IMG/VR virus record: IMGVR_UViG_3300049455_000014
Span: 1 to 33,031 of that record
Strand: one strand, 5' to 3'
Length of the DNA stretch: 33,031 nt
Origin: a virus
Taxonomy: Duplodnaviria; Caudoviricetes
In this document: piece after piece, positions 1-26,531 of the stretch
Position numbering within the stretch: position 1 is the first letter of the stretch
Layout of the letters: the number at the start of each line of letters is the position of its first letter
Position numbers and translations under genes: made by a program
The notes under the pieces: generated by a model
What the model saw: the letters and a program-made list of their open reading frames with translations, nothing else
Told to the model about the DNA's origin: nothing
Databases searched by the model: none

Positions 1-183
1 GAAACCACTAATAAAATAAGCATAAAAAGAAAACTTGATCCCTGGATAAAAACAAATGAAAAAGGACTTCCTGAGTTTTGTTCTACTGCCAGATGTCGCA
101 ATAGAGCGATAGCATGGAAGTCTAATACTGTTATAATGGAAGCTTATTGTGAGAAACATAAACCAGAAAAGTTTGGATGGTGA
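1..183 (+). CDS. Partial hypothetical protein with C-terminal Cys/His (Zn-finger-like) motif
   Basis: Frame 1 is open from the window edge to TGA 181-183: ...EFCSTARCRNRA...AYCEKHKPEKFGW. Not in the ORF track. Confidence 0.55.
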   Translation, partial: ETTNKISIKRKLDPWIKTNEKGLPEFCSTARCRNRAIAWKSNTVIMEAYCEKHKPEKFGW

Positions 184-2900: not shown

Positions 2901-2947
2901 AAGTGCCGAAAACTTGTTATCACTGACATTTCGACACATCGACACAT
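2901..2947. repeat. Cluster A of the GTGYCR motif family
   Basis: AAGTGCCGAAAAC (identical to 12975-12987) and TGACATTTCGACAC (identical to 12874-12887), directly upstream of the Rha gene. Confidence 0.8.
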
Positions 2948-2973
2948 ATCACAAAGAAAGAGTACAACATTTT

Positions 2974-3660
2974 ATGGAAAACAACAAACTCGTAACAGTG
3001 TACGAAAACAACGAACCTCTTGCGGATAGCCGTGAAATAGCGGATAAGCTCGGAATTGAACATCAAAATTTCTTTGAGATGATAAAAGACTATCAAGAGG
3101 AAGTGTCAAGAGACTTTGGATTAATCCGTTTTCAAACCGATAAAACAACGAAAGATCAACAGGGCAGGGGTAGACCGCAAAGTTACGCATTGCTTACTGA
3201 AGATCAATCATATGTCTATCTGGCATACAGCAAGAACACTGAACAAGCCAGAACGTGTAAACGTCTTCTCGTCAAGGCTTTTGCGGAGGCACGCGCTAGA
3301 CTTGTAAAACCAATCTATGCCTTGCCACTGGATTCGTTTATTGATCAACTGCGTATGGAAATCTATCAAAAGCAAGAAGCTGTTAGTCATCTTGAACAAG
3401 CTTCACTGTTACTTACTGGCGAAGTGCCGAAACGACTTGTTGGCGTCAACAAGCCACTAAAAACCCCTCAATCAGAGATTATCAGGCTTATCAACAAATT
3501 TGAAGAGCAGGGAAAACCAGCCCCAACTATCAGAGAACTTATGAGATACCTCAAGAAATATAACCCTAACACCATAAAATCTACTGTTGCCAGTATGATG
3601 GAAGATAGCGTATTGAAAAAAGAGAAGATAGGCAAAGCAGTACGCTACAGCCTGGCATAA
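2974..3660 (+). CDS. rha: Rha-family phage regulatory protein with C-terminal winged-HTH-like domain
   Basis: DSREIADKLGIEH...GRP..YALLTEDQ...KRLLVKAF; C-terminal PTIRELMRY...GKAVRYSL. ATG 2974 is preferred to TTG 2914. Confidence 0.85.
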   Translation: MENNKLVTVYENNEPLADSREIADKLGIEHQNFFEMIKDYQEEVSRDFGLIRFQTDKTTKDQQGRGRPQSYALLTEDQSYVYLAYSKNTEQARTCKRLLVKAFAEARARLVKPIYALPLDSFIDQLRMEIYQKQEAVSHLEQASLLLTGEVPKRLVGVNKPLKTPQSEIIRLINKFEEQGKPAPTIRELMRYLKKYNPNTIKSTVASMMEDSVLKKEKIGKAVRYSLA

Positions 3661-3666
3661 GCTAAT

Positions 3667-3717
3667 AAAGAAAAAGAACCTGATACAAGTATTGTTTGTA
3701 TCAGGTTCTTTTTCTTT
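3667..3717. terminator. Bidirectional terminator
   Basis: Perfect 22-bp arms (3667-3688 / 3696-3717) between convergent genes. Confidence 0.85.
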
Positions 3718-4656: not shown

Positions 4657-4761
4657 GAGAGTTTCCTTTCTTTGTATCCAACAACAAAAATCGGCTAATT
4701 ACCAGTATGTAATATCAAACGCGCTCAGAGAACGGCAAACATACCTCAGTTCTAGGATGTA

Positions 4762-4831
4762 TGCACCCTCGGAGAATCGAACTCCTCCATCATCGGCATA
4801 GGATGATATGCAACCGTACACCAGAGGGTAC
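4762..4831 (-). tRNA. Atypical tRNA-like cloverleaf, anticodon ATG (His), 8/4 fold; possibly a pseudo-tRNA
   Basis: GTACCCTC TG GTGT-ACGGTT-GCAT A TCATC-CTATGCC-GATGA TGGA GGAG-TTCGATT-CTCC GAGGGTGC A; no encoded CCA. Confidence 0.65.
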
Positions 4832-4840
4832 AAGATAGTT

Positions 4841-6731: not shown

Positions 6732-7457
6732 CTAAGCTTCCTTTGCTAAACTACTTTTATAGTTCTGTGCTGTACTAGGTGATACCCCTGCTTGCTGTGC
6801 AAGTTTACGTACTGATATCGTTGGATCTGTGTTGAGAATGGTACGCATTTTGCGGATCTGCGCAGGGGGTAGCGTACGCTTATTTTGTGCGCTTTGCTGT
6901 GCATGTACAATGTGCAATTGCTGTTCAACTTCTTGTTCGATCTGTACATCTTCCGGCAAAGCAGGGGCATCGAACTGTACCAGGCATGCGTACATTGGTT
7001 GTGTGTCCTGATGCACTGCTGATGCAAGCTTAGACCCCTCACGAGCTAACAAGAGGACTACCACAAATACACGTAGCATGACTACAATTCCAACTGTCCA
7101 CTGTACATATATATTGTTCCAATCAAAGCCAATTGATTGCTGCAAACCTTCGATTAACAGAGCTGCACCGGCTACAATAGCAAGTACAATTCCAAGTACA
7201 AACGCGCCTTTGTCGTTATCTAATTTCGCTTCAAAAAACAGGCGTACAATGTTCACCTCGATGGCCGCTGCGAATACAATTGCCCACACAAATTCAAGCC
7301 ATGACCACGTTGCTAATTGCCCTCGAACAAATACATTAGAGATTGAGATGATGGTTACGATAGTCAATACGGGTATGCTGTACAATCCCAACCATTTATA
7401 CAGTTTAGCAATCCCTCGTGCCTGTTTGGTAATACCTGGAAAATCTACAGATGACAT
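6732..7457 (-). CDS. Four-TM membrane protein with C-terminal HTH (Spd-like architecture)
   Basis: Four hydrophobic helices, then ISVRKLAQQAGVSPSTAQNY HTH; start MSSVDF after an AAAGG SD. Confidence 0.8.
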   Translation of the reverse strand: MSSVDFPGITKQARGIAKLYKWLGLYSIPVLTIVTIISISNVFVRGQLATWSWLEFVWAIVFAAAIEVNIVRLFFEAKLDNDKGAFVLGIVLAIVAGAALLIEGLQQSIGFDWNNIYVQWTVGIVVMLRVFVVVLLLAREGSKLASAVHQDTQPMYACLVQFDAPALPEDVQIEQEVEQQLHIVHAQQSAQNKRTLPPAQIRKMRTILNTDPTISVRKLAQQAGVSPSTAQNYKSSLAKEA

Positions 7458-7461
7458 ACTA

Positions 7462-7629
7462 CTAGCCTTTCTTGTTGATATACTTATCTTTGCGTTTCTG
7501 ATAGTTCGCATGTGCGCTCTCTACATCATCGTGATGCATCCGGTAGAGGACGATTCGACCGCCAATCCAGGAACCAATCAGAAAGCCTATGAGCACGCCA
7601 AAGATGAACACAAATTCAATGCCTGTCAT
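7462..7629 (-). CDS. 55-aa single-TM protein
   Basis: MTGIEFVFIFGVLIGFLIGSWIGGRIVLYR...; ATGA overlap with the ATPase stop. Confidence 0.7.
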   Translation of the reverse strand: MTGIEFVFIFGVLIGFLIGSWIGGRIVLYRMHHDDVESAHANYQKRKDKYINKKG

Positions 7630-9086
7630 AATCCCTCCTCATCTAAAACCTGTTTGATGATCCTGAATTGCTCTCCGCTAAAATGCATTTCATCTCGAAT
7701 TTCGGTACGCTTTAAGCCACGTTTACGGAGTTGGATTATCTGATTTCTGATTTCTGGCAAAACCTCTATTTTGTGCTCAACGGAGTCAACAATAGAAATT
7801 TCAGAAATTTCTGGCATATCGTTGTAAGCTGGCATTTCATCTGGTTTCACGTCACTTCTGAAATCGCCAGAAATATTTCTGATTTCTTCCTGATTTCTGA
7901 AATTTCCAGAAACATTTCTGGAAAGCAATAACCGTATATCATCAGTAGTTGTATCAGCAATTGCGACGATCTCAGGTTTACGGTTAGAGGTTGCAAGCAC
8001 TGCTTTTCCTGGCCCTGCTTCCTCTAAAATTGCCATCATGGATTTGGCTATCTCGTTTTCAAGTCCGGCCATGCGTGCCTGAGCAGGGGAGGTACAAAAG
8101 ACATATCTTGACGCCATAGCATCACGAACAAGTGTCCCTCCGAGTATGGAAGCTGGCACTCCTTGCCCACTAATCAAAGCAAACATACCAACTTTACGTC
8201 CCTCTAAAACTATGCGGCGGATAGCAGGGAGTGCTTCCATCGCCATAGATGCTATGATTGGCATTTCATCGACTAATAAAAGGACAGGCTTAAACTGTGT
8301 ACGTCCGGCGCGACGTGCTTGCAAGCGTTTCGTGAGATATGAATCCAAACTTCTTGAGTAGTCGATGATGTCACGAGGGCTTTCAGCACATTCAAAACTA
8401 CTGCCAAGATCATCCAGAATAGAACCATGAGGATCAAAGATAATCGGCTTGCCTCCGATTAATAAGACATGACCACATACATTTCTCAACAATGTTGACT
8501 TGCCTGTTCCTGGCCGGCCTACGTCAAGCGTTGATAAAAGATCGGTGATATCCCCCCAAATAGGGCCATTAGTAGCTTGTCCTAGAAATAAATGCCCTGG
8601 ATGTATTTGAGAGACAATACTACTAAACGGAGGGGCTACAGGCAGTGGCGCAGGGAGTTGTTCTTGTTCAGTTCCCCAATTCAGTTCTTTAATGGTAACA
8701 GGTGCATTAGGGATAGTGAGCGGGGAGACGCTTCTAAATTCGTGTATGCCTCCGAGGTGATCCGTATGTTTCAATTCAACACTATGGCCCATTGCTAAGG
8801 CGCGTTCTGCTAATAGCCTCTGTGTTTGAGCATGCTTGTGCGTTTGTGTAACTGTCAAATGATGCAAGCTATGAAGATGCACAGCCTTAAATACTCTCCA
8901 GCCTACCGGAATACCAATCAGAATTGTTCCTACAATAGCCAGAGGCTTTCCCCAGGTGTTCCAATTCATAAGTAAGAGAGTAACCACTATAACCAGAACA
9001 AGAAAAACACTTGCACCAATGCCTAGCATTTCTTGCAAGCCAAATGCTGACTGCCGTTCAGATGAAACAACTCTATTTTCATTCAT
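7626..9086 (-). CDS. Membrane-anchored FtsK/HerA/TraB-like P-loop ATPase with C-terminal HTH
   Basis: Two N-terminal TMs, Walker A GRPGTGKS, IFDPH, Walker B LLLVDE, EGRKVG arginine-finger region, ISGQ; likely start MNENRVV. Confidence 0.85.
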   Translation of the reverse strand: MNENRVVSSERQSAFGLQEMLGIGASVFLVLVIVVTLLLMNWNTWGKPLAIVGTILIGIPVGWRVFKAVHLHSLHHLTVTQTHKHAQTQRLLAERALAMGHSVELKHTDHLGGIHEFRSVSPLTIPNAPVTIKELNWGTEQEQLPAPLPVAPPFSSIVSQIHPGHLFLGQATNGPIWGDITDLLSTLDVGRPGTGKSTLLRNVCGHVLLIGGKPIIFDPHGSILDDLGSSFECAESPRDIIDYSRSLDSYLTKRLQARRAGRTQFKPVLLLVDEMPIIASMAMEALPAIRRIVLEGRKVGMFALISGQGVPASILGGTLVRDAMASRYVFCTSPAQARMAGLENEIAKSMMAILEEAGPGKAVLATSNRKPEIVAIADTTTDDIRLLLSRNVSGNFRNQEEIRNISGDFRSDVKPDEMPAYNDMPEISEISIVDSVEHKIEVLPEIRNQIIQLRKRGLKRTEIRDEMHFSGEQFRIIKQVLDEEGL

Positions 9087-9205
9087 AATTACCGCCCCGT
9101 TCCCAGTTCGTTCTACACTTTGATATCCTGGAAGTACAACTACAGGGTATTTGTGCCTGGATGAGTTGCCAAGCTCGTCCAGTCTTTTACTACAACGACA
9201 CTTTA

Positions 9206-9325
9206 CTAATGCCCTGGTCTGCCACAAGAGCATGGGCCTGCATGAAATTCTCCAAATGCACACACGCTGCCACATGAGCACCTACCGCTGCACCAAGCAA
9301 ACACTATTTTGATAATCTTCTTCAT
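9206..9325 (-). CDS. 39-aa Cys/His-rich peptide
   Basis: MKKIIKIVFAWCSGRCSCGSVCAFGEFHAGPCSCGRPGH; starts 4 nt after the previous stop. Confidence 0.5.
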   Translation of the reverse strand: MKKIIKIVFAWCSGRCSCGSVCAFGEFHAGPCSCGRPGH

Positions 9326-9329
9326 TTAC

Positions 9330-9527
9330 TTAGCACTCTCTTCGACAAGATGAACAAAAACGTGCGCCATCAAGTACGTACATCGGCGCATTGTGACAGC
9401 CTGATAGGAAAGTTGCGCCCGGATTGCTTACCGTTCTCCCAAATGTTCTGAATGCAGGTTTACTTCGCCCATCATTTTCTTCTGATTGCTTGTCTTGTTT
9501 GTTGTTCTTTTTACTGAACAGTCCCAT
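9330..9527 (-). CDS. Small zinc-ribbon-like protein
   Basis: SGCHNAPM...FCSSCRREC; GAAAGGA SD. Confidence 0.75.
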   Translation of the reverse strand: MGLFSKKNNKQDKQSEENDGRSKPAFRTFGRTVSNPGATFLSGCHNAPMYVLDGARFCSSCRREC

Positions 9528-9627
9528 TGTTTTGTCCTTTCTGTTACACTTACTTTTGTGCGATACATTCGCACTGTGCTTGTTGCTTGATTGTCCTTTG
9601 CAACAAGCACGCTACTACACAAACGCG

Positions 9628-9813
9628 CTACAATTGCGATAGAGCCTCTTCTACATGCAACACCCATACTGATGCAGGTTCCTGCTTTGCCTGTACTGGC
9701 TCTTGTTTCAAAGCAGTACGAACAGCAACAATCAAGAGCGTGACACCTGCTGCAAAATAGAGCGTCGAACCAATAGAAATCGCTGTCAATATGACTGCTT
9801 TTCTTTGCATCAC
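9628..9813 (-). CDS. Small TM protein
   Basis: Hydrophobic N-terminal half; GTGA overlap with the previous ORF. Confidence 0.65.
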   Translation of the reverse strand: MMQRKAVILTAISIGSTLYFAAGVTLLIVAVRTALKQEPVQAKQEPASVWVLHVEEALSQL

Positions 9814-9977
9814 ACTACCTTAGCAGGGGCTGGAGCAACTGGTAACTGTTGCGTAACGATAGTTCTACGAGATGGCAGTAAACGACGATCTAGCCAGGGC
9901 TTTGCTAATATAAGCCAGGTCGATGTTGTACCAAGACTCCAACCTACAACAACAGAGATAATAATTTCTTCAAACAT
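9810..9977 (-). CDS. 55-aa TM protein
   Basis: MFEEIIISVVVGWSLGTTSTWLILAKPWLDRR...; coupled to both neighbours; not in the ORF track. Confidence 0.65.
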   Translation of the reverse strand: MFEEIIISVVVGWSLGTTSTWLILAKPWLDRRLLPSRRTIVTQQLPVAPAPAKVV

Positions 9978-10240
9978 CACTTACCAACTTTCTTTGCCAC
10001 TGGCATTCTGATAGTTCCACCCAACTCCGATGGCTCTAACACATCCTCACGTAGTAGGGCATCTTGCGCCTGCAATAAAAACTGCATCCTAGAGGCAAAC
10101 CAGAATTCAATCAGCTTGCACGCTATGCCGCTCACTGTTTGCAATCCCCAAATCAACAGGAAGAAATAGAAGAGCGCATGAAAGACTTCTCCCAATGCTA
10201 CCAACAACCCAGGTACGAAAAACTCACTCCAAAAATTCAT
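9977..10240 (-). CDS. Small membrane protein
   Basis: MNFWSEFFVPGLLVALG...FYFFLLIWGL; AAGGTGG SD. Confidence 0.7.
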   Translation of the reverse strand: MNFWSEFFVPGLLVALGEVFHALFYFFLLIWGLQTVSGIACKLIEFWFASRMQFLLQAQDALLREDVLEPSELGGTIRMPVAKKVGK

Positions 10241-10290
10241 GATACACACCACCTTTTTCAAAAGAAATACACTACAAAAACAAATGCTGG

Positions 10291-10548
10291 TTAGCCTGGT
10301 TGTTCTAAACCAAATCCAGCTTCAAACACATTGAAAACGTCGCTTTGCTCTTTCTGAATAAGTTCAATCTCACTTTCACCAAACCACGATGGACGTGATA
10401 CTCCATCCCACTTCACAGCAAGCTGATATTCTCTATAATTCATTTTCTGATTCACCTCTAATACTTCTGCTACTTGACCCTCAAACTTTCCCTCTGCCAG
10501 AACTCGAACGATATCACCCTTAACAATCATTTCTGTTATCCTTTCCAT
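10291..10548 (-). CDS. KOW/SH3-like small protein
   Basis: KGDIVRVLAEGKFEGQVAEV...WFGESEIELI. Confidence 0.7.
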   Translation of the reverse strand: MERITEMIVKGDIVRVLAEGKFEGQVAEVLEVNQKMNYREYQLAVKWDGVSRPSWFGESEIELIQKEQSDVFNVFEAGFGLEQPG

Positions 10549-10555
10549 CTGCCGA

Positions 10556-10744
10556 TTAACTTGATTGCTCTTTCCCGATTTGCTTACTGAATCGAGTAAT
10601 CCACTTTCGGATAGTTGTTTGATGCTCTTTAATAGCTTTCACCTCGTCCATGTCATGTGATTGCTGAATTGCAGCACCAGCATCATAAAGAGCAATATTG
10701 AGAATAGTAAGCAACTCCTGAATATCCTTATCACTTAATTCCAT
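10556..10744 (-). CDS. Hypothetical helical-hairpin protein, first gene of the leftward operon
   Basis: 62-aa ORF with AAGGA SD, immediately after repeat cluster B. Confidence 0.7.
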   Translation of the reverse strand: MELSDKDIQELLTILNIALYDAGAAIQQSHDMDEVKAIKEHQTTIRKWITRFSKQIGKEQSS

Positions 10745-10759
10745 TCCCTTATCCTTTCC

Positions 10760-10876
10760 GAAGTGTCACAAGTGTCACAAAGTGCCGAAAAATTTTGTGA
10801 CACTTCATTCATGCTTAAATGAACGACTACTTGACATAATTCAAGCTCACTACTTCCAAGTGTCGAAATGTCAACA
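10760..10876 (-). repeat. Left arm (cluster B) of a long imperfect inverted repeat
   Basis: AAGTGTCAC x2, AAGTGCCGAAAA, TGTGACACTT, and the core AAGTGTCGAAATGTCAACA at 10858-10876. Confidence 0.85.
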
Positions 10877-10914
10877 CGTTTTCAGAGTTGTTGACGATTT
10901 CAGCAGTTCATGCA

Positions 10915-11874
10915 TCATTCAAATAAAGAATTCACTGGACTGATTGCCCCTCGTCGAGCATCCGATTGTGTAAAAGATTTGAGATAGTTCTCAGTTATCG
11001 AGATGCTGTGATGTCCCATGAGCTTACTCAATCGGTAAATATCGTTTGTTTCCCTCATGTAGACTGTTGCAAAAGTATGCCGGAATGTATGAGGAGAACA
11101 CTGTACGCCACTGATACCAGCTTGCCTACCAAGTTGATGGATAATTCTGAACAGCGTTGATTCAGTCAGTGCATCGCCATGCCTGGTAAGAAATACTGGA
11201 TTGGTTATTGATAACAAGTCACGTCGATGCCGATTGACGAAACGCCGTAACTCTTTTCGACATCGCTCACCTAAACCAACCTCACGCCACTTGTCGCCCT
11301 TACCAAATACTTTGATATGTGCATCGGTTGGAGTCAGGAAGATATGGTTTAGTTGCAAGTGACAGAGTTCAGCGGCTCGTATGCCGGTATCAAGCAAAAG
11401 TAAGATGATAGCGCGGTTCCTGTCTCTCAAGTATGCATTCTCTTTTTCAGATCCCACATTGACATGATTACAAGCCAGTAAAAGAGCATCAATCTGTTCT
11501 TTCGTGAAGATATCTCGCACAAGCACATCACGCTTAGGAGTGCTGATTTTCAGCACTGTTCTAACATCTACATATTCCCCAAATTCTTCACTCTGGCTAC
11601 ACCAGTTCAAGAAAGCTTTGATGACTGCAGCTTGGAGAAACATCGTATGAGAAGAAACTGTACCCCCTGCTTTGCTATGATGTGTTGCCTGGAATGCATC
11701 TAAATAGCTATCAACCGTTCTTGGCTTGATTGTTTCAAGCTGAAGAGATTGTGCTTCACAAAAAGAGCAGAACAAGCCGAGGATACGAGCGGCTTCTGAT
11801 AATGTTTTATTTTTCACTCGACTTTTCCTTTCTGCTTGATACTCTGCTAGTGCTTCACGTACATCCAAGATCAC
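10915..11874 (-). CDS. Tyrosine recombinase (XerC/D-like integrase)
   Basis: DTGIRAAE, GKGDK, HTFRH, LMGH, TENY: all catalytic residues present. At 319 aa it has no obvious arm-binding N-terminal domain. Confidence 0.95.
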   Translation of the reverse strand: MILDVREALAEYQAERKSRVKNKTLSEAARILGLFCSFCEAQSLQLETIKPRTVDSYLDAFQATHHSKAGGTVSSHTMFLQAAVIKAFLNWCSQSEEFGEYVDVRTVLKISTPKRDVLVRDIFTKEQIDALLLACNHVNVGSEKENAYLRDRNRAIILLLLDTGIRAAELCHLQLNHIFLTPTDAHIKVFGKGDKWREVGLGERCRKELRRFVNRHRRDLLSITNPVFLTRHGDALTESTLFRIIHQLGRQAGISGVQCSPHTFRHTFATVYMRETNDIYRLSKLMGHHSISITENYLKSFTQSDARRGAISPVNSLFE

Positions 11875-12251
11875 CTATTCCCCCACAATTCTACGATACA
11901 AACGATACCAATTGGCTTTACAAGCTAGTTTAGCAACTTCTCTCTTATGCCATCATATGGACGTTATGATATTGTTGGCGAGTTGACAAAAATGCTGCTA
12001 TCCTTGCTTCACGATGGTTCATAATGCTCCATTTCCCCTTGAAAACCCTGTTATATGATGTCATAGGGGAATAGTACCTAAAGAAGCATAAAAAAGCAAG
12101 CAAACAGCCAGCATAAACACCTACTCGCTACGCACCATGCTGCGCGCCGCTGATAGCAGTTCTTACACCAGTTTCAACCACTATAAAAAACTATGTGAAA
12201 CTTCTCCACATTTGAAGATAGTTTTCCACAGTAGTTGTGTACAAGTCCTGA

Positions 12252-12287
12252 GAAGTGTCACATGCCGAAATGCCGAAAGGTGTCACA
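12252..12287 (+). repeat. Cluster C of the same motif family
   Basis: GAAGTGTCACA TGCCGAAA TGCCGAAA GGTGTCACA. Confidence 0.8.
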
Positions 12288-12870
12288 AGAATATTTTTTG
12301 TTGGCAGATGATTGTAGAGAAGTTTTTCTAAGCAGGGGGTGAGTAGGGGATATTTCTTATAGACATATGACTATTGTTCAGTTAATAGATATACTTTTAG
12401 TTTATATATTATATATTGATATACAAGATATAGATTTGGACCCTTAACCCTTATCTTAATAAGGATAATAACATATCTAAAAGTACTATGTCAAGAGTTA
12501 AAAGTACTAATTGCTCTTACTCCCTGCTTAGTGAGAATAAATAATTATTAAAAACTGAACAATAACAGAAGAGGGAAAATCTACACATAGCCCCTGCTTT
12601 GCAGATATTCAAATTTAAGCCTCAGATCAAAAATTTGAAGTCTCATAGCTTCCAGGTGAGTGGTAGGACATTTGTTTGAATTTTTTCATCTGAGCGCGTT
12701 ACAGAGGGTTATTTCAGGTGAGTGCATTTTTTGAATGATGGCAAGATATTTTTCTGATAGCTTGCATCTGGCTTGTAAAGCTATGGCACATGAAGCTGTA
12801 ACGTATCAAATTCAAAAAGTGGCATGAGGGCGATTTCTTGATGTATAAATCATCACTGACCTTAAAAAGC

Positions 12871-13000
12871 TGTTGACATTTCGACACTTCATTTTATTTG
12901 AGCTTGATATCTCATCCATTTGAGCACAACGAAGTGTCATTTTGGGTTTCGGCACTTGTGACACTTGAGCACGGAAGTGCCGAAAACACGTGTGACACTT
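12871..13000 (+). repeat. Right arm (cluster D) of the long inverted repeat
   Basis: TGTTGACATTTCGACACTT at 12871-12889, then TGAGCTTGA, GAAGTGTCA, TTTCGGCACTT, TGTGACACTT x2 and AAGTGCCGAAAAC. Confidence 0.85.
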
Positions 13001-13085
13001 GGAGTAAGCACAAACATATTTGCTTTTCATCTCTCTAAACTGTATAGTAAAAGCAGAGTCCTTCATATCGAGAGTAACTATGCAC

Positions 13086-13144
13086 AACAAGAAAGCTTTT
13101 GTCAGGATGTTATCCTTTCCGTTTCTGACAAAAGCTTTCTTGTT
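13086..13144. repeat. Perfect 20-bp inverted repeat upstream of the terminase genes
   Basis: AACAAGAAAGCTTTTGTCAG / CTGACAAAAGCTTTCTTGTT with a 19-nt loop. Confidence 0.85.
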
Positions 13145-13294
13145 TTTATGTCAACAATCCTGTAAGATACTAACTAAGCCGTTTGTTTGGAGTGTGGGGT
13201 AGGCTACTGTCAATAGAGGTGTGGCAAGCAAACGGCGAAACCAAACTTCCACACAATAACCTCAAAAAGCAAGAGCAGTGAATCTAGAAACCTT

Positions 13295-13915
13295 ATGGAA
13301 CCTAATGGTACTCTTTCCAGAAATCAAGAGCGGTTCTTACAAGCACTGCTACTTGGCAAATCTATAGCTGATTCTTATAAACACGCTGGTATCAGTAAGT
13401 CAACTGCATTCCGTTGGATTGAAGAGCCTGTATTTGTTGCAGAGCGCAAACGACGTGAATCAGAACTAGCCAGGTTAGAGCAGGAAGAGATCACACGTGT
13501 TCTGACATCTGGCTATGCTTTGATGCATAGGCGTGTAGAGGCTCTTGATAAGCTCTCCAAGAAGCTTGAAGCATACATGGAAGATGAACACAACATCTGG
13601 CTTCCTGATGTGAAGAGTATTGGAACAGGGCCAACTGCTGAACGTGTTGATTTAGTTCAGTTCAACGATAGGCTCATAAGTGAATACAGAGCAACCTTTG
13701 CCGATCTTGCATCAGAGCTTGGCCAGCGTGTCAAGAAGCAAGAGATAGAACACTCTGGTTTGATTGAACTCTTAAATGCTGAACATGCATCCCTCGTAGC
13801 AGATCTGGAAGCAATACCTGATGGCAGTCCTGTTGAAATCGAAACAGAGAATACAGATACCGGAGCCGATTCCGGTACACCTGGCTCGGAAGATAGCGAA
13901 CCTTTCGCCAACTGA
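13295..13915 (+). CDS. terS: Terminase small subunit (putative)
   Basis: N-terminal HTH (LSRNQERFLQALL...AGISKSTAFRW); overlaps the TerL start. Confidence 0.75.
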   Translation: MEPNGTLSRNQERFLQALLLGKSIADSYKHAGISKSTAFRWIEEPVFVAERKRRESELARLEQEEITRVLTSGYALMHRRVEALDKLSKKLEAYMEDEHNIWLPDVKSIGTGPTAERVDLVQFNDRLISEYRATFADLASELGQRVKKQEIEHSGLIELLNAEHASLVADLEAIPDGSPVEIETENTDTGADSGTPGSEDSEPFAN

Positions 13916-15275
13916 CAGACGGGCTTTTATCCTGCGTCAATCCGTAGCGAAAGCCTTAACAATCAAATACACCTGGGCTGCATGGGCGCGTGATAAACAA
14001 CTCTGGCAAATTGAAGCGCCGGAAGAGTGGGAAACGTGGCTTCATCTAGCAGGGAGAGGCTACGGTAAAACTCGCACAGGCTCAGAGCAGACTATTGAAT
14101 GGGCATTAGATGATCCAGAGGGTCACATAGCCTTAGTAGGTAGAACAGTAGCGGATGTCAGAGATGTCATGATAGGCGGGAAATCTGGCATACTCAAATG
14201 TTCCCCTCCCTGGTTTCGTCCTGAGTACATTCCTAGTAAGCGCCATCTCACCTGGCCAAACGGCTGTACAGCTACAACCTACTCAGCAGATCAACCAAAC
14301 CAACTGAGAGGGCCACAACATACAAAAGCGTGGGGAGATGAACGCGCTAGTTGGCAGTATGACGATGCATATGACCAATTACAATTTGGCTTGCGTCTAG
14401 GTAGAAACCCACAGCTCATACTCACTACAACACCCAGGGCTACAGAAGCAATCAAGGAATTAATCAAGGAACCTGGCACGCATACAACCTATGGCACAAC
14501 CTATGAGAATACTGCCAATCTCACACGTAAGTTTTTCACGACGATTGAACGCAAGTATGGCGGCACTAGACTAGGCTTACAGGAACTACTAGGTCGGATA
14601 CTAGACGATAATCCAGGCGCGCTCTGGAAACGCTCAAACATTGATAAGTTGCGAGTGCGCTATGGAGAAGTACCAGAGTTAAAGCGTGTAGTCGTAGCAG
14701 TTGATCCAGCAGTGAAATCACCTGATGCTGTCAAAGCCGCTCGAGGGGAACTTGACGAAAGCGTAGCTGAAACTGGCATTGTTGTTTGTGGCTTAGGCGT
14801 CAACAATGAGGGTTATGTCATTGCTGACTACAGTATGCAAGGAACACCACTCGAATGGGCGCAACAGGTAGCAATGGCTTATGAGATACATCAAGCTGAT
14901 GCTGTCATAGGTGAAGTGAACAACGGAGGGGATTTAGTTGAGTCAAACATCAGAACAGTCAACAAAAACATTTCTTACATTGCTGTCAGAGCTACAAGAG
15001 GTAAACAAGTACGAGCTGAACCTGTCAGCTCCCTTTATCAACAAGGTCGTGTGCACCATGTTGGAACATTGCCTGACCTTGAAGATCAATGCTGCAACTG
15101 GATTCCAGGAGACAAAAGTCCTGACAGATTAGATGCGCTTGTGTGGGGATTTACTCGTTTGATGGTTGGTCAGGAGTTAGTTGGCGGTATGATGTTAGAT
15201 ACCGATGTGAGAGAGCAAGAAGAGGTAGAAGAGGATGAGCAGGAAGAGCAATCGGCATACGCGCTATTCCGGTAG
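13821..15275 (+). CDS. terL: Terminase large subunit
   Basis: AGRGYGKT Walker A, LRGPQ, WGDE, TTTP, VAVDP nuclease motif, GEVNNGG, SPDRLDA. Confidence 0.95.
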   Translation: MAVLLKSKQRIQIPEPIPVHLARKIANLSPTDRRAFILRQSVAKALTIKYTWAAWARDKQLWQIEAPEEWETWLHLAGRGYGKTRTGSEQTIEWALDDPEGHIALVGRTVADVRDVMIGGKSGILKCSPPWFRPEYIPSKRHLTWPNGCTATTYSADQPNQLRGPQHTKAWGDERASWQYDDAYDQLQFGLRLGRNPQLILTTTPRATEAIKELIKEPGTHTTYGTTYENTANLTRKFFTTIERKYGGTRLGLQELLGRILDDNPGALWKRSNIDKLRVRYGEVPELKRVVVAVDPAVKSPDAVKAARGELDESVAETGIVVCGLGVNNEGYVIADYSMQGTPLEWAQQVAMAYEIHQADAVIGEVNNGGDLVESNIRTVNKNISYIAVRATRGKQVRAEPVSSLYQQGRVHHVGTLPDLEDQCCNWIPGDKSPDRLDALVWGFTRLMVGQELVGGMMLDTDVREQEEVEEDEQEEQSAYALFR

Positions 15276-17463
15276 TAGCGGGAACAATAATCAAAACAAA
15301 CCGCAAATAGTCATACATCCATCGCAAGAAGAAAATGAACAAATCTTCATACAGCATGGCAATCTTGCGCTTGTAAGAGAAGCTCGTCCGCGAAAAACAC
15401 CTGCTCCAACTTCTACAGCCAATCTCAGAAACAAAGCTCAATCTCTTTCACTTGACTGGGATGATAATGAAGCTCTCCAAATACAGAACCAACGACCTCT
15501 TACAGAAGCTGAACGCAAAGAAACGCTGTACAGTGTCTATGTTGGCAATACCTGGGTAAGTTCGTGTGTTGACGTCATCTCCAAGCGTTTCACCTCTGGT
15601 GGATGGCACATGGAAGAAGTAGAGCAGGATAAAGGCGATCTGAAGAATAAAGACACGCTGAAAAACTTCTTGCTCAACATCAATGACGATGAAGACTTTC
15701 TCCAGTTCTTGCGTGGCGCAGCTGACGACCTGGATATCTACGGTGAATCTTACGCTGAAATCATCCCTGGCCCAGATGGACTACCCGTACAACTCGTTTC
15801 CATCGATTGCGTCACTATGACCTATGAACTGGACGAACATGGTAATATCACCAAATACGTGCAAACACTGGTCAAGAGCAATAGAACCGTTGAATTTAAG
15901 CCGGAACAGATTATCAGATGGTGGCTCCCCTCCAAACGCGCTCGTAAAGTCGCATTCTCTCCAATTGAAAAAATGGTCAATCCAACCTATGCTGACAAGA
16001 ATATGGTGGACTGGGTACACATGTTCTTTAAGAAAGGCACGAGGCCCAGCACCTGGATTAAACTTGGCGATGATAGCGATATCGATGATGCTAGGCAGTA
16101 CCTCAAGTTCTACAAGGAAAACTATACAGGCGCACAAAACGCACATACTCCACAAATCGCTTATGGCGGAGCAACGATTAACGAGTATGGCAAAGGTTCA
16201 ATTGACGTCGACTTTGGTAAAGGCCGTTTGTTCACCCGAGAAGAAGTATTAGCAGGCTATGGTGTACCTCCGGCAACCATCGGTATTATCGAAAGTGGCA
16301 ACATTGGCTCAGGAACAGGTGAAGATCAAGATAAAGCACTGAGGAATAATACCGTTGACCCTATCAAACAGTTGATCTTAGAAAAGTTCAATAGGCGTGT
16401 AGTGGTGGGAGGATTTGGGATCACTGACTGGGTAGTCACAACCAGATATGCTGACTACCGTTCAGATGTGGAAATATCAGAGGTACAAAACAAACGTATC
16501 TTCTCAGGTGTCTCTACTCCAAACCAGGAAAGAATAGACGCTGGCAAAGCGCCATATCCAGATACAGGCGACACACCAATAGTTGTCGCAGGCAAAGAAA
16601 TATTGCCTCTTGAGCGTATAGACGACTTAGCGCAAGAGCAGAGAGACACATCAGATGTCACACTGCAAACACAAAAAGCCGCGCTTGATCTGGCACAAAC
16701 ACAAGCAGACAAAGCCAAACATCCAGACCCTGTGTCCCCTGCGTTGTCAAATGGACAACCTGGACAACAAAAAGCACAGGGAGGTCAACCTGATGCAAAT
16801 CAAAAGCAAGTCAAGCAACAAATGCAACCTCCGCAAGATGAAAATGAACATTTCATACGAGAAGATAAGAATACAGGTATCATGGTTGCGTTTATGCTTG
16901 ATGCTCAAACAGCAAAGAAGCTTGCACTTCCAGGTGGAGAATCACCTAAAGATATGCATATCACATTAGCTTATCTAGGTGATAAGGTTGATTTTACAGG
17001 TGATGTTGCCAAACTGAAAAAAGAACTGACATCATTTGCATCTGAAGCAATACCGCTCAAAGGTACAACGGGTGGATTAGGGCGTTTCACGCCGTCTGAC
17101 AGTTCAGATAACACATCACCGATTGTTGCACTTGTAAATATTCCAGGTATCCAGAAATGGCGTACTCAGTTAGTGAAAAGACTTGAAATTGCAGGGGCTA
17201 CTGTTGCATCAGATTTTGAATTTACTCCACATATCACTCTTGATTATATTGATGCTGATGCACAGTCACCTATCAAGGATGTACCAAATGTTCCACTTGA
17301 CTTTGATACGCTCTGGTTATGTATCGGAGATGAACGTTACTCGTTCAAAGTTGGCGATGAACAATATCCAGATGAACAATATCCAAATGAATCTTTTTTC
17401 GTGAGAGCCTCCGACAATGGAGGCAACCTGCACCTGAACAGCTTAAATGTGAACAAGAACTAG
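15235..17463 (+). CDS. Portal protein with C-terminal 2H phosphoesterase domain
   Basis: Follows TerL. Portal motifs WVSSCVDVIS, DIYGESY, GVPPATIG, TPNQER; Q-rich linker; two HITL motifs at about H575 and H666. Confidence 0.9.
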   Translation: MSRKSNRHTRYSGSSGNNNQNKPQIVIHPSQEENEQIFIQHGNLALVREARPRKTPAPTSTANLRNKAQSLSLDWDDNEALQIQNQRPLTEAERKETLYSVYVGNTWVSSCVDVISKRFTSGGWHMEEVEQDKGDLKNKDTLKNFLLNINDDEDFLQFLRGAADDLDIYGESYAEIIPGPDGLPVQLVSIDCVTMTYELDEHGNITKYVQTLVKSNRTVEFKPEQIIRWWLPSKRARKVAFSPIEKMVNPTYADKNMVDWVHMFFKKGTRPSTWIKLGDDSDIDDARQYLKFYKENYTGAQNAHTPQIAYGGATINEYGKGSIDVDFGKGRLFTREEVLAGYGVPPATIGIIESGNIGSGTGEDQDKALRNNTVDPIKQLILEKFNRRVVVGGFGITDWVVTTRYADYRSDVEISEVQNKRIFSGVSTPNQERIDAGKAPYPDTGDTPIVVAGKEILPLERIDDLAQEQRDTSDVTLQTQKAALDLAQTQADKAKHPDPVSPALSNGQPGQQKAQGGQPDANQKQVKQQMQPPQDENEHFIREDKNTGIMVAFMLDAQTAKKLALPGGESPKDMHITLAYLGDKVDFTGDVAKLKKELTSFASEAIPLKGTTGGLGRFTPSDSSDNTSPIVALVNIPGIQKWRTQLVKRLEIAGATVASDFEFTPHITLDYIDADAQSPIKDVPNVPLDFDTLWLCIGDERYSFKVGDEQYPDEQYPNESFFVRASDNGGNLHLNSLNVNKN
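17394..17424 (+). promoter_or_regulatory. Putative programmed -1 ribosomal frameshift site
   Basis: T TTT TTC heptamer in the portal frame, 6-nt spacer, then the hairpin GCCTCC-GACAAT-GGAGGC. Confidence 0.75.
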
Positions 17464-21291: not shown

Positions 21292-21347
21292 TGAGACTTT
21301 ACGAATAGACACATAGGGGATATGTGGAGAGGGAAGAAAGAAATACT

Positions 21348-22802
21348 ATGGCAACTCTTGAAGACTTGAGGGAAGCGTACACCACTGGTACAGCCGGTAC
21401 AGCAGCTCCTCTTATTAATAAGGTCATCGACAAACTCTTGCTGATTGACCAGCGCAAATATGCGCCAATGCGCCGAGCACTCCCACGTCAAACCTGGGAA
21501 ACCGACATCTTTTACTTTAATGCTCAAACCGCTTTGCCACAAGCGCAGATGACCACTGAAAATCCACCGACAACTGGTACAGGCTCAGTGGCAGCTACTA
21601 ACTCAACCTACACACAGGGCAGCTTTCCAATCAAGCACATGCAAGTCAATCTTGACATTCCAGCATTCTCTCAGCAAGTGGCTCAAGCTAACGGCAATTT
21701 GCGAGATTTGGAACTGACGGCTGCTGGCAAGTCCTATTCCTGGCTTGAAGAAATCATTCACTACTTTGGAAGCGCAACCGGTACGCTGAATACCAAGCGC
21801 CCACAGTGGGACGGATTTGATATCCAGGTAGCTGGCGTCAACAAGATCGATGCTGCAACTCAACTCCTTTCGCTTCAGATGATGGACAACGCACTTGATT
21901 CTGTCAAAGGCGTTGCTGCAACTGACCTGGGAGATGATTGGTTCTATCTCATGAGCGGCAAAATGCAATCCAGGTTGAATGGCCTTTTTATCAATCAGCA
22001 ACAGTACCTCAGAGGTGTATCTCGCATCTTCGCTCGCGATGACTTCGGGAATCCAAATAACGCCGTATCGGACAACTATCTTGATGGTGGCGTGGAAGTT
22101 GCAACCTATCGCAATATTCCAATCGTGCTTTCAAACTTCATGGGTAACGTTGGTTCAAGTGCGACCGGCGGTTTGACCAATACTTCCAACAACACTGGTT
22201 CAGCCGGTGGCTTGTTAGCTTCTCATACCTACTACTACATGCTAGAAGCGGTGACACGTTACGGTCTCATGGCTGCTTCTGTTGAGTATTCCAAATCACC
22301 AAATGCTGATGGAAATAGCATCATCTTCTCCTGGACAACTCCAACGCCTACCGATGCCTTTGGCAACACCATCGATATTCTTGGCTATCGCTTGCATCGT
22401 TCTGATAATACAAGTGGCGCTGAAAGCCTCTATGCGCTTATCGCTGGCAAAGATGCATCAGACGCGGCGATCACGTCATTTACTGATACTGGCCTACCAG
22501 TCACTCCGAGCGCGGCAGATACCACTTCAACCTGGTGTACCGTTGCGAAATCTGGCGCTAATGCTGCTTCTGATGGCGTGACATTCCCGCGTGTACAGTC
22601 AGGTACTCAGGTTGTTGAAGACATCTTCCTGGTGCCTCGCACTCCTGAATTCGCAGTGGTTCCAGTGGTCAACGAGATGACCATGAAAGCTTTGGCGCAG
22701 GTCAACGCACGTAGCAATCAGTACGCCATGATTGGCGATCAAACTTTTGCTTTGAGAAGTGGCGCATTTGCTGCAAAAATCAGCCGTGTACGTGCCAACT
22801 AG
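21348..22802 (+). CDS. Major capsid protein with inserted Fn3-like domain
   Basis: Position and size; HK97-fold-like segments (PLINKVID, WDGFDIQ, VATYRNIPIV); insertion YYY..AV..YG...FSWT...GYRLHRS...FTDTG. Confidence 0.85.
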   Translation: MATLEDLREAYTTGTAGTAAPLINKVIDKLLLIDQRKYAPMRRALPRQTWETDIFYFNAQTALPQAQMTTENPPTTGTGSVAATNSTYTQGSFPIKHMQVNLDIPAFSQQVAQANGNLRDLELTAAGKSYSWLEEIIHYFGSATGTLNTKRPQWDGFDIQVAGVNKIDAATQLLSLQMMDNALDSVKGVAATDLGDDWFYLMSGKMQSRLNGLFINQQQYLRGVSRIFARDDFGNPNNAVSDNYLDGGVEVATYRNIPIVLSNFMGNVGSSATGGLTNTSNNTGSAGGLLASHTYYYMLEAVTRYGLMAASVEYSKSPNADGNSIIFSWTTPTPTDAFGNTIDILGYRLHRSDNTSGAESLYALIAGKDASDAAITSFTDTGLPVTPSAADTTSTWCTVAKSGANAASDGVTFPRVQSGTQVVEDIFLVPRTPEFAVVPVVNEMTMKALAQVNARSNQYAMIGDQTFALRSGAFAAKISRVRAN

Positions 22803-25067: not shown

Positions 25068-25439
25068 ATGAGCGGATTTCAAAGAAATGCTGATGCAGTC
25101 TATTCGTTGCCATCGACTGTCACATCAGGCACAACACAAAATAGCGGTAGTTTGGCAGTAGGGCCATACACTGAAATCTCAATAGATATCAATACAACGG
25201 CTCAGGCTGGCACCAATCCAACTATTCAATATTTTTATGAGCGATTGGCTGCCGATGGGATTTATTATGTCTTGTGGCAAAGTGCAGTACTGACGGCCGC
25301 TACCAATACGCTCTCAACAAGCATAGGCGCTGGCATGGCGTATAACCAATCGCTCGGAGTTACAGGACGTTTACGTTGGGTGGTTGGTGGTTCAGCAACG
25401 CCTACATTTACTCATACAGCAAATTTGCAAGGAAAATGA
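25068..25439 (+). CDS. Virion beta-sandwich protein
   Basis: Composition and context; LRWVVGGS.TPTFT. Confidence 0.7.
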   Translation: MSGFQRNADAVYSLPSTVTSGTTQNSGSLAVGPYTEISIDINTTAQAGTNPTIQYFYERLAADGIYYVLWQSAVLTAATNTLSTSIGAGMAYNQSLGVTGRLRWVVGGSATPTFTHTANLQGK

Positions 25440-25452
25440 GGGAGATGCAACA

Positions 25453-26022
25453 ATGCCTCAACCAAGCACGACAGGAGGCGGATTAATGGGATATCCAACA
25501 ACAGTTGATACCGGGCAAATTGTTCCTATGGCTCTCTATGATGGTGAGGTTGCATCTCAAGCTACAGCTGCGGTACTTGCAGCAAATACAGCTTATCTTA
25601 TTGCAGTGACGCTTTCTGTCAATGCTGTTCTCACAAATATCCGTGTGCGTTGTAATGCTGGCGGGAACGGCCATTATGATGTGGGGATTTACGATGCAAC
25701 AGGAACAAACGGACAAGCGGGTAACTTGCTTGCTCATGCGGCGGCTACTGCTAGTTCGCTTGTTACGTCATCGGCTTTACTCACCCCTGCTCTGATTGGA
25801 GGGAACTTGCCGTTGGCACCTGGACGCTATTGGTTGGCATTGTGGGTAGATAATGCAACGGACACCTGGAATAAGATAGCTTCGCCCAATGCCAATACAT
25901 TCCCTGTACAATCTGGCACAAATAACGGGCCATTGCCAGCGTTAGCATCAAGTCTGTCGAGTCTCGCTAACGCAACGATCAAGCCAACTATTATTGGCTT
26001 ATTGTCAGGAGGATGGTCATAA
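25453..26022 (+). CDS. Virion beta-sandwich protein
   Basis: DVGIYDA...LAPGRYWLAL; ATG 25453 follows a GAGGGAG SD. Confidence 0.75.
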   Translation: MPQPSTTGGGLMGYPTTVDTGQIVPMALYDGEVASQATAAVLAANTAYLIAVTLSVNAVLTNIRVRCNAGGNGHYDVGIYDATGTNGQAGNLLAHAAATASSLVTSSALLTPALIGGNLPLAPGRYWLALWVDNATDTWNKIASPNANTFPVQSGTNNGPLPALASSLSSLANATIKPTIIGLLSGGWS

Positions 26023-26519
26023 TGGCGTATCCAACAACTGTTGATTTCGGTGCAAGTCAGTCAGATATTCTCAACTGGATGCGGAATGGCCAATGTTTCA
26101 CGGCGATGGAAAAGCTGACAGGTTCATCTGTTACTGGTGGACTCGCTATCTTTAACGCTGCCAATAGCAGCAAAACGCTGATCTTGTATCGCATTTACAT
26201 GATTGTTGCTACAGCAGCAACGAGTATTCAGATTTCGACACAAACAACTGATTATGCTTTGGGTGCTGCAACACAAGCAGGGGTAAATAAACTTGTTGGT
26301 GGACCTGCAAAAGTAGCAACGGTATCAGGGGCAGCTTCTGGTTTGTCTCAGGCAGGCACACAACTCATGCAGACATATAACGTTGGGAACACACCGTATG
26401 AAGTGTTGATGCCAAACGCACCATTTGTCTTTCCTGTTGGCGTTGCTCAAGCACTGGAATTCCTGGCGGTTACTGGCACAGGCAATGGGGCAGTTCATTT
26501 TGAGTGGGCTGAAATTTAG
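26022..26519 (+). CDS. Virion protein, paralog 1
   Basis: 165 aa; TAATG coupling; ungapped match to the next gene. Confidence 0.8.
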   Translation: MAYPTTVDFGASQSDILNWMRNGQCFTAMEKLTGSSVTGGLAIFNAANSSKTLILYRIYMIVATAATSIQISTQTTDYALGAATQAGVNKLVGGPAKVATVSGAASGLSQAGTQLMQTYNVGNTPYEVLMPNAPFVFPVGVAQALEFLAVTGTGNGAVHFEWAEI

Positions 26520-26531
26520 CAGGGGGATGAT

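Follow-up and report, generated by a model that had tools for sequence, protein, structure and literature searches.

A tyrosine recombinase between inverted repeats in a Caudoviricetes phage: likely protein-binding repeat modules and a likely integration cassette at the host gene yitJ

What does a tyrosine recombinase do when its gene is enclosed by long inverted repeats that face two operons? The question is raised by positions 10,760 to 13,000 of a 33,031-nucleotide stretch of DNA from a soil phage of the Caudoviricetes (the window), for which a preliminary description had offered three readings: an invertible switch between two lifestyles, an inversion-driven replication mode, or two duplicated, co-regulated modules that do not recombine. 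Sequence comparison indicates that the locus is quite probably two separate things, namely arm modules that are likely bound by a winged-helix domain and likely not recombined, and a likely integration cassette in which the integrase is accompanied by two pieces of host yitJ, one copying its 3′ end and the other an inverted copy of further sequence from the gene.

Repeat arms around the recombinase

The exact inverted repeat reported earlier is confirmed at 19 of 19 positions (10858..10876, plus strand, against the reverse complement of 12871-12889), and the outward similarity said to continue for about 100 bp was recovered as a gap-rich alignment of 118 columns in which 85 of 98 aligned positions agree, giving arms of ~115 bp in which all five of the short motifs named at the time (5/5) occur in mirrored order. 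The arms align locally with a score of 114, whereas 983 random inverted window pairs gave a median of 29 and at most 72. The left arm is a ~130-bp repeat module (10760..10900, minus strand) with a 12-bp invariant core, a 26-bp palindrome at 10780-10805 and tandem units. The right arm is a module of the same kind (12847..13000, plus strand) that carries the second 19-mer and palindromes at 12932 and 12975; the centers of the three 26-bp palindromes (10780, 12932, 12975) differ. An FtsK-like ATPase/membrane operon runs leftward from the left arm, and the right arm faces the terminase operon. The placement of the left arm at the start of the leftward operon stands insofar as a 62-aa open reading frame adjoins the arm, but the ATPase gene begins 1.5 kb further on. 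Use of the 19-mer as a −35 promoter element was rejected because TTGACA is not conserved in the relatives L002 or G170.

Between the arms lies an intact 319-aa Xer-like tyrosine recombinase (10915..11874, minus strand), likely a phage integrase as judged from its PF00589 match (E 8e-29), its catalytic residues and trees. The full R-K-H-R-H-Y set (R166, K192, H262, R265, H288, Y297) is invariant across 20 aligned homologues. PF00589 is the sole domain, no N-terminal arm-binding domain was detected in the protein, and the best models and solved relatives are XerA, XerC and XerD, all below cut-off. The remainder of the interval, previously taken to be non-coding, contains two host-gene pieces that point in opposite directions. 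No integrase more than 44% identical to that of the window was found among 169 genomes. In trees built with FastTree only, the enzyme groups among att-linked integrases; a 39-row group of one tree was not recovered as a supported clade in a second.

Enclosure of the recombinase by an exact 19-bp repeat makes it tempting to suppose that the enzyme flips 10877-12870, exchanging lifestyles or driving Flp-like amplification. L002 has its own exact 18-bp pair around the integrase gene with both arms changed together, and an origin-like region lies nearer one arm, as such a reading would have it. Several lines of evidence nevertheless make the flip extremely improbable. In X1, the sequencing run that holds the phage and that provides evidence in the form of assembled contigs, no joint was found at either arm in contigs spanning 9000-11972 and 12135-15000 (contigs drop rare variants), and comparison at 90% and at 80% likeness showed no joint of the kind that inversion at the 19-mer would leave. 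One contig at 2x (record 6) carries the right-arm module between different flanks and belongs to another element. L002 is oriented like the window relative to terminase. A circular 64-kb relative, G170 (terminal repeats present, yet CheckV completeness 75%), keeps both arms, both flanking operons and an exact 18-bp inverted pair while giving no PF00589 or PF00239 match, which argues that the arms are independent of the recombinase. The enzyme lies outside the FimB/FimE invertase family (NF007370, 50.7 bits against a cut-off of 221; NF007371, 32.7 bits against 222), and its grouping with att-linked integrases points the same way. The contigs that cross the arms, the orientation of L002 and the arms of G170 thus leave the lifestyle switch without support, and inversion-driven replication of the Flp type fares no better given the gapped, imperfect arms and the differing palindrome centers. 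The phase-switch reading can be set aside, and the recombinase-free relative with equal repeats serves as a natural control. The data favor the last of the earlier options, in which co-regulated modules were duplicated and do not recombine; the two halves of the long inverted repeat are diverged modules to which a protein likely binds and between which recombination is unlikely.

The repeat unit is not limited to the two arms as first thought. AAGTGYCR occurs in 18 copies (mean 5.0, maximum 12 in 100 simulations), with additional plus-strand clusters at 2901..2945, where the 12-bp invariant core recurs at the start of the Rha/winged-helix gene, and at 12252..12290, an inner cluster of the arm unit. 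The arms of L002 and G170 match their positional counterparts at 108/121 and 109/128 positions, versus 100/120 and 103/132 for the partner arm. Change in the inner cluster has kept pace with change in the arms, which is what co-evolution with a binding protein would produce and which runs counter to a switch. Motif clusters flank the integrase gene on both sides in L045, L047 and L087 (integrase identity 34-37%), and none were found on both sides in the closer L006, L013, L075 and L007 (45-57%). A role as integrase arm sites was rejected because the motif tracks phage lineage and not the integrase tree.

A candidate binder of the repeats is the Rha-domain protein encoded at 2914..3660 (plus strand), whose C-terminal winged helix is 47% identical to the C-terminus of the G170 DUF3987 helicase and has homologues in L045, L023, L075 and G170. 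The helicase gene is absent from the window, the record being partial; DUF3987 helicases with the homologous winged helix occur only in relatives, and several DUF3987 genes lie directly before repeat-rich, AT-rich regions. The window has a conserved non-coding AT-rich center at 12325..12690 (27% GC at 12340-12530; 81% identity over 99 nt to L003 and 69% over 379 nt to G170), a candidate replication origin or packaging-start region. Near it and the right arm are two DnaA-box-like 9-mers (12202..12230, plus strand), one exact and one with 1 mismatch, which are weak alone against a background of 1.9 per kb, and short direct and inverted repeats cluster around the AT-rich stretch in the manner of an iteron or operator array. 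The arms most likely serve as binding modules for the winged helix that the Rha protein shares with the DUF3987 helicases of relatives. It is also reasonably probable that the arms and inner cluster would be sites for the winged helix of a DUF3987 helicase, of the Rha fusion or of both, acting as origin and operator modules.

A putative attachment site shared with host yitJ

The preliminary description had named recombinase action on sequence shared with a host chromosome as evidence against a switch, and such a sequence adjoins the integrase gene. Positions 11943..11997 (plus strand) copy the 3′ end of host yitJ, which encodes a bifunctional homocysteine S-methyltransferase/MTHFR of the methionine pathway. 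The stretch matches X1 record 2 at 55/55 positions before that record continues into non-phage DNA, and it matches yitJ genes of the candidate host group, Ktedonobacteria (Chloroflexota), at 38-44/55; NF006396 scores above cut-off for two host loci. It is followed at 11998..12024 (plus strand) by a replacement tail in frame with the host gene, comprising 8 codons plus a stop, supplied by the phage and of the same length in 4/4 phages. Duplication of the gene end next to the integrase together with a new in-frame stop is the layout of a gene-restoring attachment site, and 11943-11997 is likely a classical attP with the crossover inside it, at a position that the comparison does not fix. A 6-7-6 symmetric site centered on 11958-11964 is a candidate core. 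L004 has a further 10 bp of host identity upstream of attP that are absent from the attP of the window. No yitJ lysogen junction was found in X1 or the 169 genomes, and the X1 graph is what an unoccupied host site together with free phage would give; one degenerate pattern returned 0 further yitJ phages among viral contigs. A 25-codon open reading frame antisense to the 3′ fragment was discarded, its start codon being the complement of the conserved replacement stop.

The second piece (12132..12182, minus strand) repeats, in inverted orientation, the ~50 bp of the yitJ coding region that in the host end 10 bp before the 11943-11997 stretch. It matches host G100 at 38/51 positions (null median 13) and is neither a promoter nor a tRNA piece; a stop in the host frame means that it is not translated as such. 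X1 record 3 joins the reverse complement of 12132-12164 to 10 other letters and 11943-11972, and record 5 runs on into non-phage DNA. Variable columns among the four yitJ copies fall 4/3/4 by codon position, in a synonymous-bias test of host tracking. The spacer between the pieces (11998..12131, minus strand) has a promoter-like site at 12099-12071 that is aimed at the integrase and conserved in four phages, with a score that alone is not beyond chance (p 0.25-0.34). X1 contigs lack cover over about 11998-12131, a hole that proves nothing; because L002, L003 and L004 carry a homologous spacer, the form seen in the window is not an assembly artefact. The 3′ fragment and inverted copy are common to the window and these three close relatives, in one orientation in 4/4. 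The stretch lost from G170 begins where the inverted copy begins, which indicates that the copy belongs with the integrase.

A mirrored copy also accompanies about 21 related integrases, in these cases with split tRNA halves, and the layout occurs in 16/80 loci with integrase identity of at least 33.9% versus 0/89 below. It spans Arg, Met, Phe, Gly and Leu tRNA targets as well as yitJ, with integrases 34-45% identical to that of the window and a similar distance of 74-226 bp between copy and 3′ fragment. For seven integrated relatives that target tRNA genes both attL and attR are seen, with crossing at the anticodon loop; the copy lies beside attL in 4/7 and is absent in 3/7. The four lysogens read restored gene, spacer, inverted 5′ copy, and at the far end integrase and 3′ fragment; by eye, the tRNA is succeeded by a terminator-like hairpin. 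None of their four copies keeps the anticodon core intact, the core being changed or absent in 4/4. In one, G069, the copy includes the tail of an upstream tRNA and no promoter; taken with the protein-coding target of the window, this identifies the recurring element as ~50 bp of target homology, whatever it encodes. A search for other protein-gene targets in sister clades with the upstream DNA of L028, L049 and L057 (3 of ~12 candidates) against the 169 genomes gave 0, 1 and 2 weak matches. The Ktedonobacter racemifer element has no match to window genes other than the integrase (15 queried) and is for that reason not called a phage.

Possible roles of the inverted copy

In a Ktedonobacteria host, a crossover made by the integrase between a point inside 11943-11997 and the 3′ end of yitJ would restore the gene and carry the inverted copy to attL, the copy itself being no partner in the exchange. 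Integration would separate the integrase from promoters that point across attP, and these could then fire antisense into the restored host gene. The inverted copy may pair with this antisense stretch as a 45-60-bp hairpin present only in the lysogen, muffling the transcript, a role that we put forward tentatively. A lysogen strand does fold into a long hairpin (z −12), an outcome that any such inverted repeat would give and that says nothing of function. Promoter-like sites facing the integrase at p<=0.1 follow the copy at 9 of 25 loci, precede it at 10 of 25 and are antisense at 0 of 25, in a set that includes near kin; taken by themselves, the four yitJ promoters do not reach significance. 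Against the hairpin step stand the many sites that follow the copy, since transcripts from them would miss it, and the terminator-like hairpin behind the tRNA in the lysogens.

The position of the copy just before a promoter-like site, with the −35 box falling in its end in L008 and L012, is what might be expected if it were instead an extra DNA site for an integrase that lacks a detected arm-binding domain, either an accessory to synapsis and directionality or an operator repressing the integrase's own promoter. The distance of 74-226 bp to the 3′ fragment and the loss of copy and integrase together in G170 fit as well. One recombinase half-site is, however, shorter than the 45-60 bp of identity, the interval from the copy end to the duplicated part varies, and tRNA and yitJ copies share no sequence, so that we consider this role unlikely. 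An equally unlikely reading takes the copy for a functionless by-product of fold-back copying at attL when the target changes, kept matched by gene conversion in lysogens. Its absence from three of seven integrated relatives is consistent with this, as is host identity that peaks next to the att end and falls off with distance (33/33, then 2 mismatches in 12); persistence over divergent integrases, five tRNA types and yitJ at similar distance speaks against it.

In every case one strand carries the sense left flank, a spacer and the antisense right flank, and the copy changes with the target, the protein-coding one included. The copy and the reversed 3′ fragment might for these reasons be base-pairing guides for the attB flanks, in one RNA or DNA, with a strand geometry like that of the IS110 bridge RNA, and the promoter-like sites that precede the copy could be cited in its favor. 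We judge guides quite improbable, since gene restoration already explains the 3′ fragment, the enzyme is ordinary and Xer-like with no extra domain, a 10-bp gap separates the two pieces in the window, and some relatives integrate without a copy. The free form of the window shows no excess RNA structure (z −0.64), and 1/65 pairs is compensatory in four close sequences, a comparison of low power. The fuller proposal that Ktedonobacteria integrases find targets by base-pairing, with both flank copies rewritten for each tRNA or yitJ target and self-pairing in the lysogen switching the guide off, is just as doubtful; if true, it would amount to a homology-guided, reprogrammable tyrosine integrase.

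Inversion in silico rebuilds whole tRNAs for many of the relatives, and in some of these the shared core is intact; X1 record 3 (depth 45) is deeper than record 5 (depth 39). Both observations could suggest that the short segment 11943-12131 is itself a switch that flips, or that the copy is an alternative attP through which the phage integrates the other way round. Contig depth is no copy number, however, and the two pieces in the window have 10 unmatched letters and no shared core, copies frequently have a changed or absent core, the four yitJ phages have one orientation, and 50 bp of coding sequence would be unable to rebuild yitJ from its 5′ side, all of which makes either version very improbable. 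A folded single-strand attP, the model for CTX-phi, was rejected because the flanks of the two pieces are not complementary.

Relation to known systems

FimB and FimE are promoter invertases, and Flp/FRT is the recombination system of the 2-micron plasmid. As in these systems, a tyrosine recombinase is encoded in the window close to an inverted repeat, and DNA with promoter-like and origin-like features is enclosed by that repeat. The arms, however, are gapped, ~85% alike and kept without a recombinase, and a second orientation was not seen. The target loop of the IS110 bridge RNA carries sense left-flank and antisense right-flank copies on one strand, as the phage locus does; here the enzyme belongs to PF00589 and not to the IS110 family, the pieces are 50 bp and not short guides, and no structured scaffold was detected. 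P4 alpha acts with ori1 and crr. Phage replicative helicases of the DUF3987 type (SF6, MCM-like) have a C-terminal winged helix (PMC4889955, PMC11724360), and relatives of the window encode DUF3987 proteins while its Rha protein carries the homologous domain. The phage differs in that one module stands before the ATPase operon and one before the Rha gene, and binding to such repeats is not reported in the available portions of those papers (PMC4889955, PMC11724360).

In tRNA-dependent lysogeny (PMC10865867), extra target-related phage sequence likewise travels with a tyrosine integrase. The tRNA is not rebuilt by attP in that case, its loss being made good by a complete phage tRNA, whereas integration here would restore the target gene and the additional piece is a fragment in inverted orientation. 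Islander-type islands likewise bring the 3′ part of their target so that integration restores the gene (PMC4383910); relatives of the window moreover cross at the anticodon loop. Unlike those islands, the phage has a second, inverted copy of the 5′ flank ~135 bp away and a protein gene, yitJ, as target. Islander rejects fragments of opposite orientation as false positives (PMC4383910) and would filter out inverted copies of this kind. Tools that discard inverted target fragments in this way would miss these sites. Among titles and abstract openings of mostly open-access papers, no inverted target-flank copy at attP was described, nor did the same material yield yitJ integration or att sites of Ktedonobacteria phages.

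Brujita-type integrases are reportedly ‘directionless’. The enzyme described here is like these arm-less (‘simple’) integrases in its Xer-like two-domain size, its lack of a detected arm-binding domain and its phage origin (10.1101/542381, PMC8138268), a likeness that does not imply membership of the IntBrujita subgroup. It differs in having a host in the Chloroflexota (Ktedonobacteria) and in the mirrored target flank, which the parts of these reports at hand do not mention (10.1101/542381, PMC8138268). How arm-less integrases gain direction and control is little understood, and a group of them that keeps a mirrored copy of the upstream DNA of its target bears on the question; Ktedonobacter racemifer (G001), a cultured host with such an element, makes the role of that copy testable.

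Repeat arms around the recombinase gene

The exact 19-bp inverted repeat noted in the preliminary description (10858-10876 and 12871-12889) lies within two arms, 10760-10900 and 12847-13000, whose similarity is real: 85 of 98 aligned positions are identical, all five motifs listed there are mirrored, and the alignment score of 114 compares with a median of 29 and a maximum of 72 in 983 random pairs. The suggestion that the tyrosine recombinase gene (int, 10915-11874, minus strand) sits in an invertible switch spanning 10877-12870 is not supported. Contigs from soil run X1 covering 9000-11972 and 12135-15000 are identical to the window with no joint at either arm, contigs being evidence that can lose rare variants; the stretch is present in this one run, which is not independent of the window because it may be its source. 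A pattern scan for the repeat pair also found the arms in a close circular relative, G170 (64 kb, with direct repeats at its ends), which gave no recombinase match. Identity to the window is 84% for portal, 88% for the protein at 21324-22802, 68% for TerS and 66-83% for the ATPase. G170 retains both arms and the AT-rich centre, with three small ORFs, no integrase and no yitJ piece between them, and PF00589 and PF00239 gave no match in the whole record (rated 75% complete by CheckV). The ORFs (locus L301, 2726-3790), all unknown, have their own promoter-like site and replace the whole integration cassette; this relative may be non-integrating.

In phage L002, whose integrase is 77% identical, the segment is oriented to terminase just as in the window. 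An exact 18-bp pair of its own encloses int together with a LuxR-like gene, and both the arms and the inner cluster have changed in concert. Between L002 and G170, positional counterpart arms agree at 108/121 and 109/128 positions and partner arms at a lower 100/120 and 103/132. Loci with distant integrases (L045, L047, L087) have int flanked by motif clusters left and right, and loci with several closer integrases do not, in a survey of 40 loci, part of them with short flanks. Judged from these sequences, the arms are probably not a substrate of the recombinase, and the data favor the third option raised at the outset, duplicated co-regulated modules without recombination.

AAGTGYCR occurs 18 times in the window against 5.0 expected, and repeat-unit clusters extend beyond the arms to 2901-2945 and 12252-12290. 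Three 26-bp palindromes have differing centres. Several relatives (L001, 7153-9234; also L012, L020, L169 and L172) have a recurring palindrome, CCCTTGCAAGGG, to the left and right of their integrase gene. The gene for a Rha protein (2914-3660) starts inside a motif cluster, and its product ends in a C-terminal winged helix with homologues in three loci (L075, L045, L023); over 62 residues this domain is 47% identical to the C-terminal end of the DUF3987 protein of G170, where the domain occurs on the helicase only. According to PMC4889955, DUF3987 proteins are SF6 replicative helicases that carry a winged helix at the C-terminus, and PMC11724360 shows DNA unwinding by one of them. The Rha protein could be a split-off replication regulator. 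L001 has a different repeat unit after a DUF3987 gene, arranged around an AT-rich centre. We infer that the repeat arrays are putative origin and operator modules, with the winged-helix protein probably their binder. A packaging role for the right arm is conceivable.

Genome setting

The window is the whole of a 33,031-bp virus record, which lacks a terminal repeat. Terminase, portal, head and neck protein genes occupy its right part, and small regulators and an FtsK/HerA-like ATPase operon its left. Genomic relatives of the integrase are mainly Chloroflexota, Ktedonobacteria being closest. At 6732-9281, in a phage that has a full set of virion genes, the ATPase (551 aa) adjoins a membrane protein ending in an HTH; homologues occur in L002 (PF01580), L026, L045 and G170. 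The pair is reminiscent of the Tra/Spd spreading modules of mycelial bacteria; no relaxase was seen. The portal protein (15235-17463) carries a C-terminal LigT-like 2H phosphoesterase fusion with a weak Acb1 match (E 0.005), possibly an anti-defence or RNA-repair domain. ARAGORN called a tRNA-His(ATG) at 4761-4832 (minus strand) that has no Rfam match at gathering score and is probably spurious; a 7310-nt X1 contig has one end nearby. Three small paralogous genes lie at 25384-27029, the last two a 510-bp tandem duplication (~74% identity). Perfect hairpins of 22 bp (3667-3717, terminator-like, between converging genes) and 20 bp (13086-13144, immediately before terS) are also present.

A probable attachment site matching a host protein gene

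The X1 assembly graph breaks at 11943-11997 and 12132-12176. Three matching records there have greater depth (39-45 versus 12); two continue into non-phage DNA, and in the third the reverse complement of 12132-12164 is followed by ten other letters and then by 11943-11972. Matches to the break-point sequences occurred in 2 of 5 and then 10 of 169 genomes, three of these ten being unrelated short matches. The probable host target is the 3' end of yitJ, a gene for bifunctional homocysteine S-methyltransferase/MTHFR; the two loci scanned exceed the NF006396 cut-off. At eight host loci, 38-44 of 55 positions agree with the 3' piece (11943-11997) and 14-38 of 51 with the 5' piece (12132-12182), G100 best, against a null median of 13 and 99.9th percentile of 23.

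In the window and three close phages (L002, L003, L004) the 3' piece is prolonged by eight codons and then a stop, all in the reading frame of the host gene. This fits the expectation for an attP that restores its target on integration, a principle given for tRNA targets in PMC4383910. In all four, the 5' piece is inverted, 121-134 bp from the 3' piece; in the window the inverted copy stems from the coding end of a gene longer than 1.5 kb, which does not support a duplicated promoter as the general reason for such copies. In L005 (integrase 59% identical; contig ending 200 bp upstream) both yitJ pieces are fused in frame directly upstream (30-140, minus strand); this would be an attR junction or else an attP whose 5' identity reaches further.

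Layouts in the integrase family and the inverted copy

Int is preceded by a 5' tRNA half in forward orientation and then a 3' half in reverse in 16 of 80 loci with at least 33.9% identity and 0 of 89 below, counting dereplicated loci with sufficient upstream DNA drawn from 238. By HMM the label applies to 17 of 125 rows, four more having both halves just beyond cut-off. In-silico inversion reconstitutes whole tRNAs, and the 5' copy frequently has an altered or absent anticodon core. The family employs several att geometries: nine loci have only the forward 5' half just upstream of the integrase, and L253 has a whole tRNA, then a short inverted 5' piece. Two integrases 46-50% identical to the window's (L006, L013) lie directly behind another ORF with no att-like gap, which suggests a different role or att position. 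L082, a split-tRNA locus from a Patescibacteria-labelled bin yet inside the Ktedonobacteria-type clade, is possibly misbinned.

Both ends were traced in seven integrated relatives; in all, int is adjoined by a 3' fragment and the complete tRNA lies at a distance of 13-62 kb, and therefore the crossover falls at the 3'-fragment site, with the copy carried to attL. Four (G001 from Ktedonobacter racemifer, and G069, G106 and G080) have the inverted copy 112-151 bp past the duplicated part, with scores of 79-112 against a null maximum of 19, and three (G003, G107, G142) lack it. The copy in G069 contains no promoter; it comprises the tail of an upstream tRNA, a spacer and the beginning of the target.

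Promoter-like sites at p<=0.1 follow the copy in 9 of 25 loci, precede it in 10 and are antisense in none, the loci not being independent; the data agree with transcription directed toward int. In the mechanism we propose, the integrase would recombine with host yitJ inside 11943-11997, separating int from its promoter across attP; that promoter would then fire antisense into the restored host gene, and the RNA could pair with the inverted copy as a hairpin existing in the lysogen only. We hold this hairpin tentatively, at roughly one chance in three. A real lysogen strand folds with z -12, a consequence of the repeat itself, and the free form shows no folding excess. Against the mechanism stand the lack of any yitJ lysogen seen, a crossover not pinned to a position within 11943-11997, the three relatives missing the copy and the many promoter-like sites downstream of it. 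An accessory integrase site and a self-renewing relic are other readings of the copy, to each of which we give about one chance in five. A base-pairing guide is an improbable role for it, and a small switch or second attP a very improbable one.

The locus resolves into two separable features, the repeat arms and the probable integration cassette between them; the att anatomy joins an arm-less integrase, a gene-restoring attP and a mirrored target flank, here with a protein-coding target. Literature searches, judged by titles and abstract openings, found no description of a mirrored target flank at such an attP.
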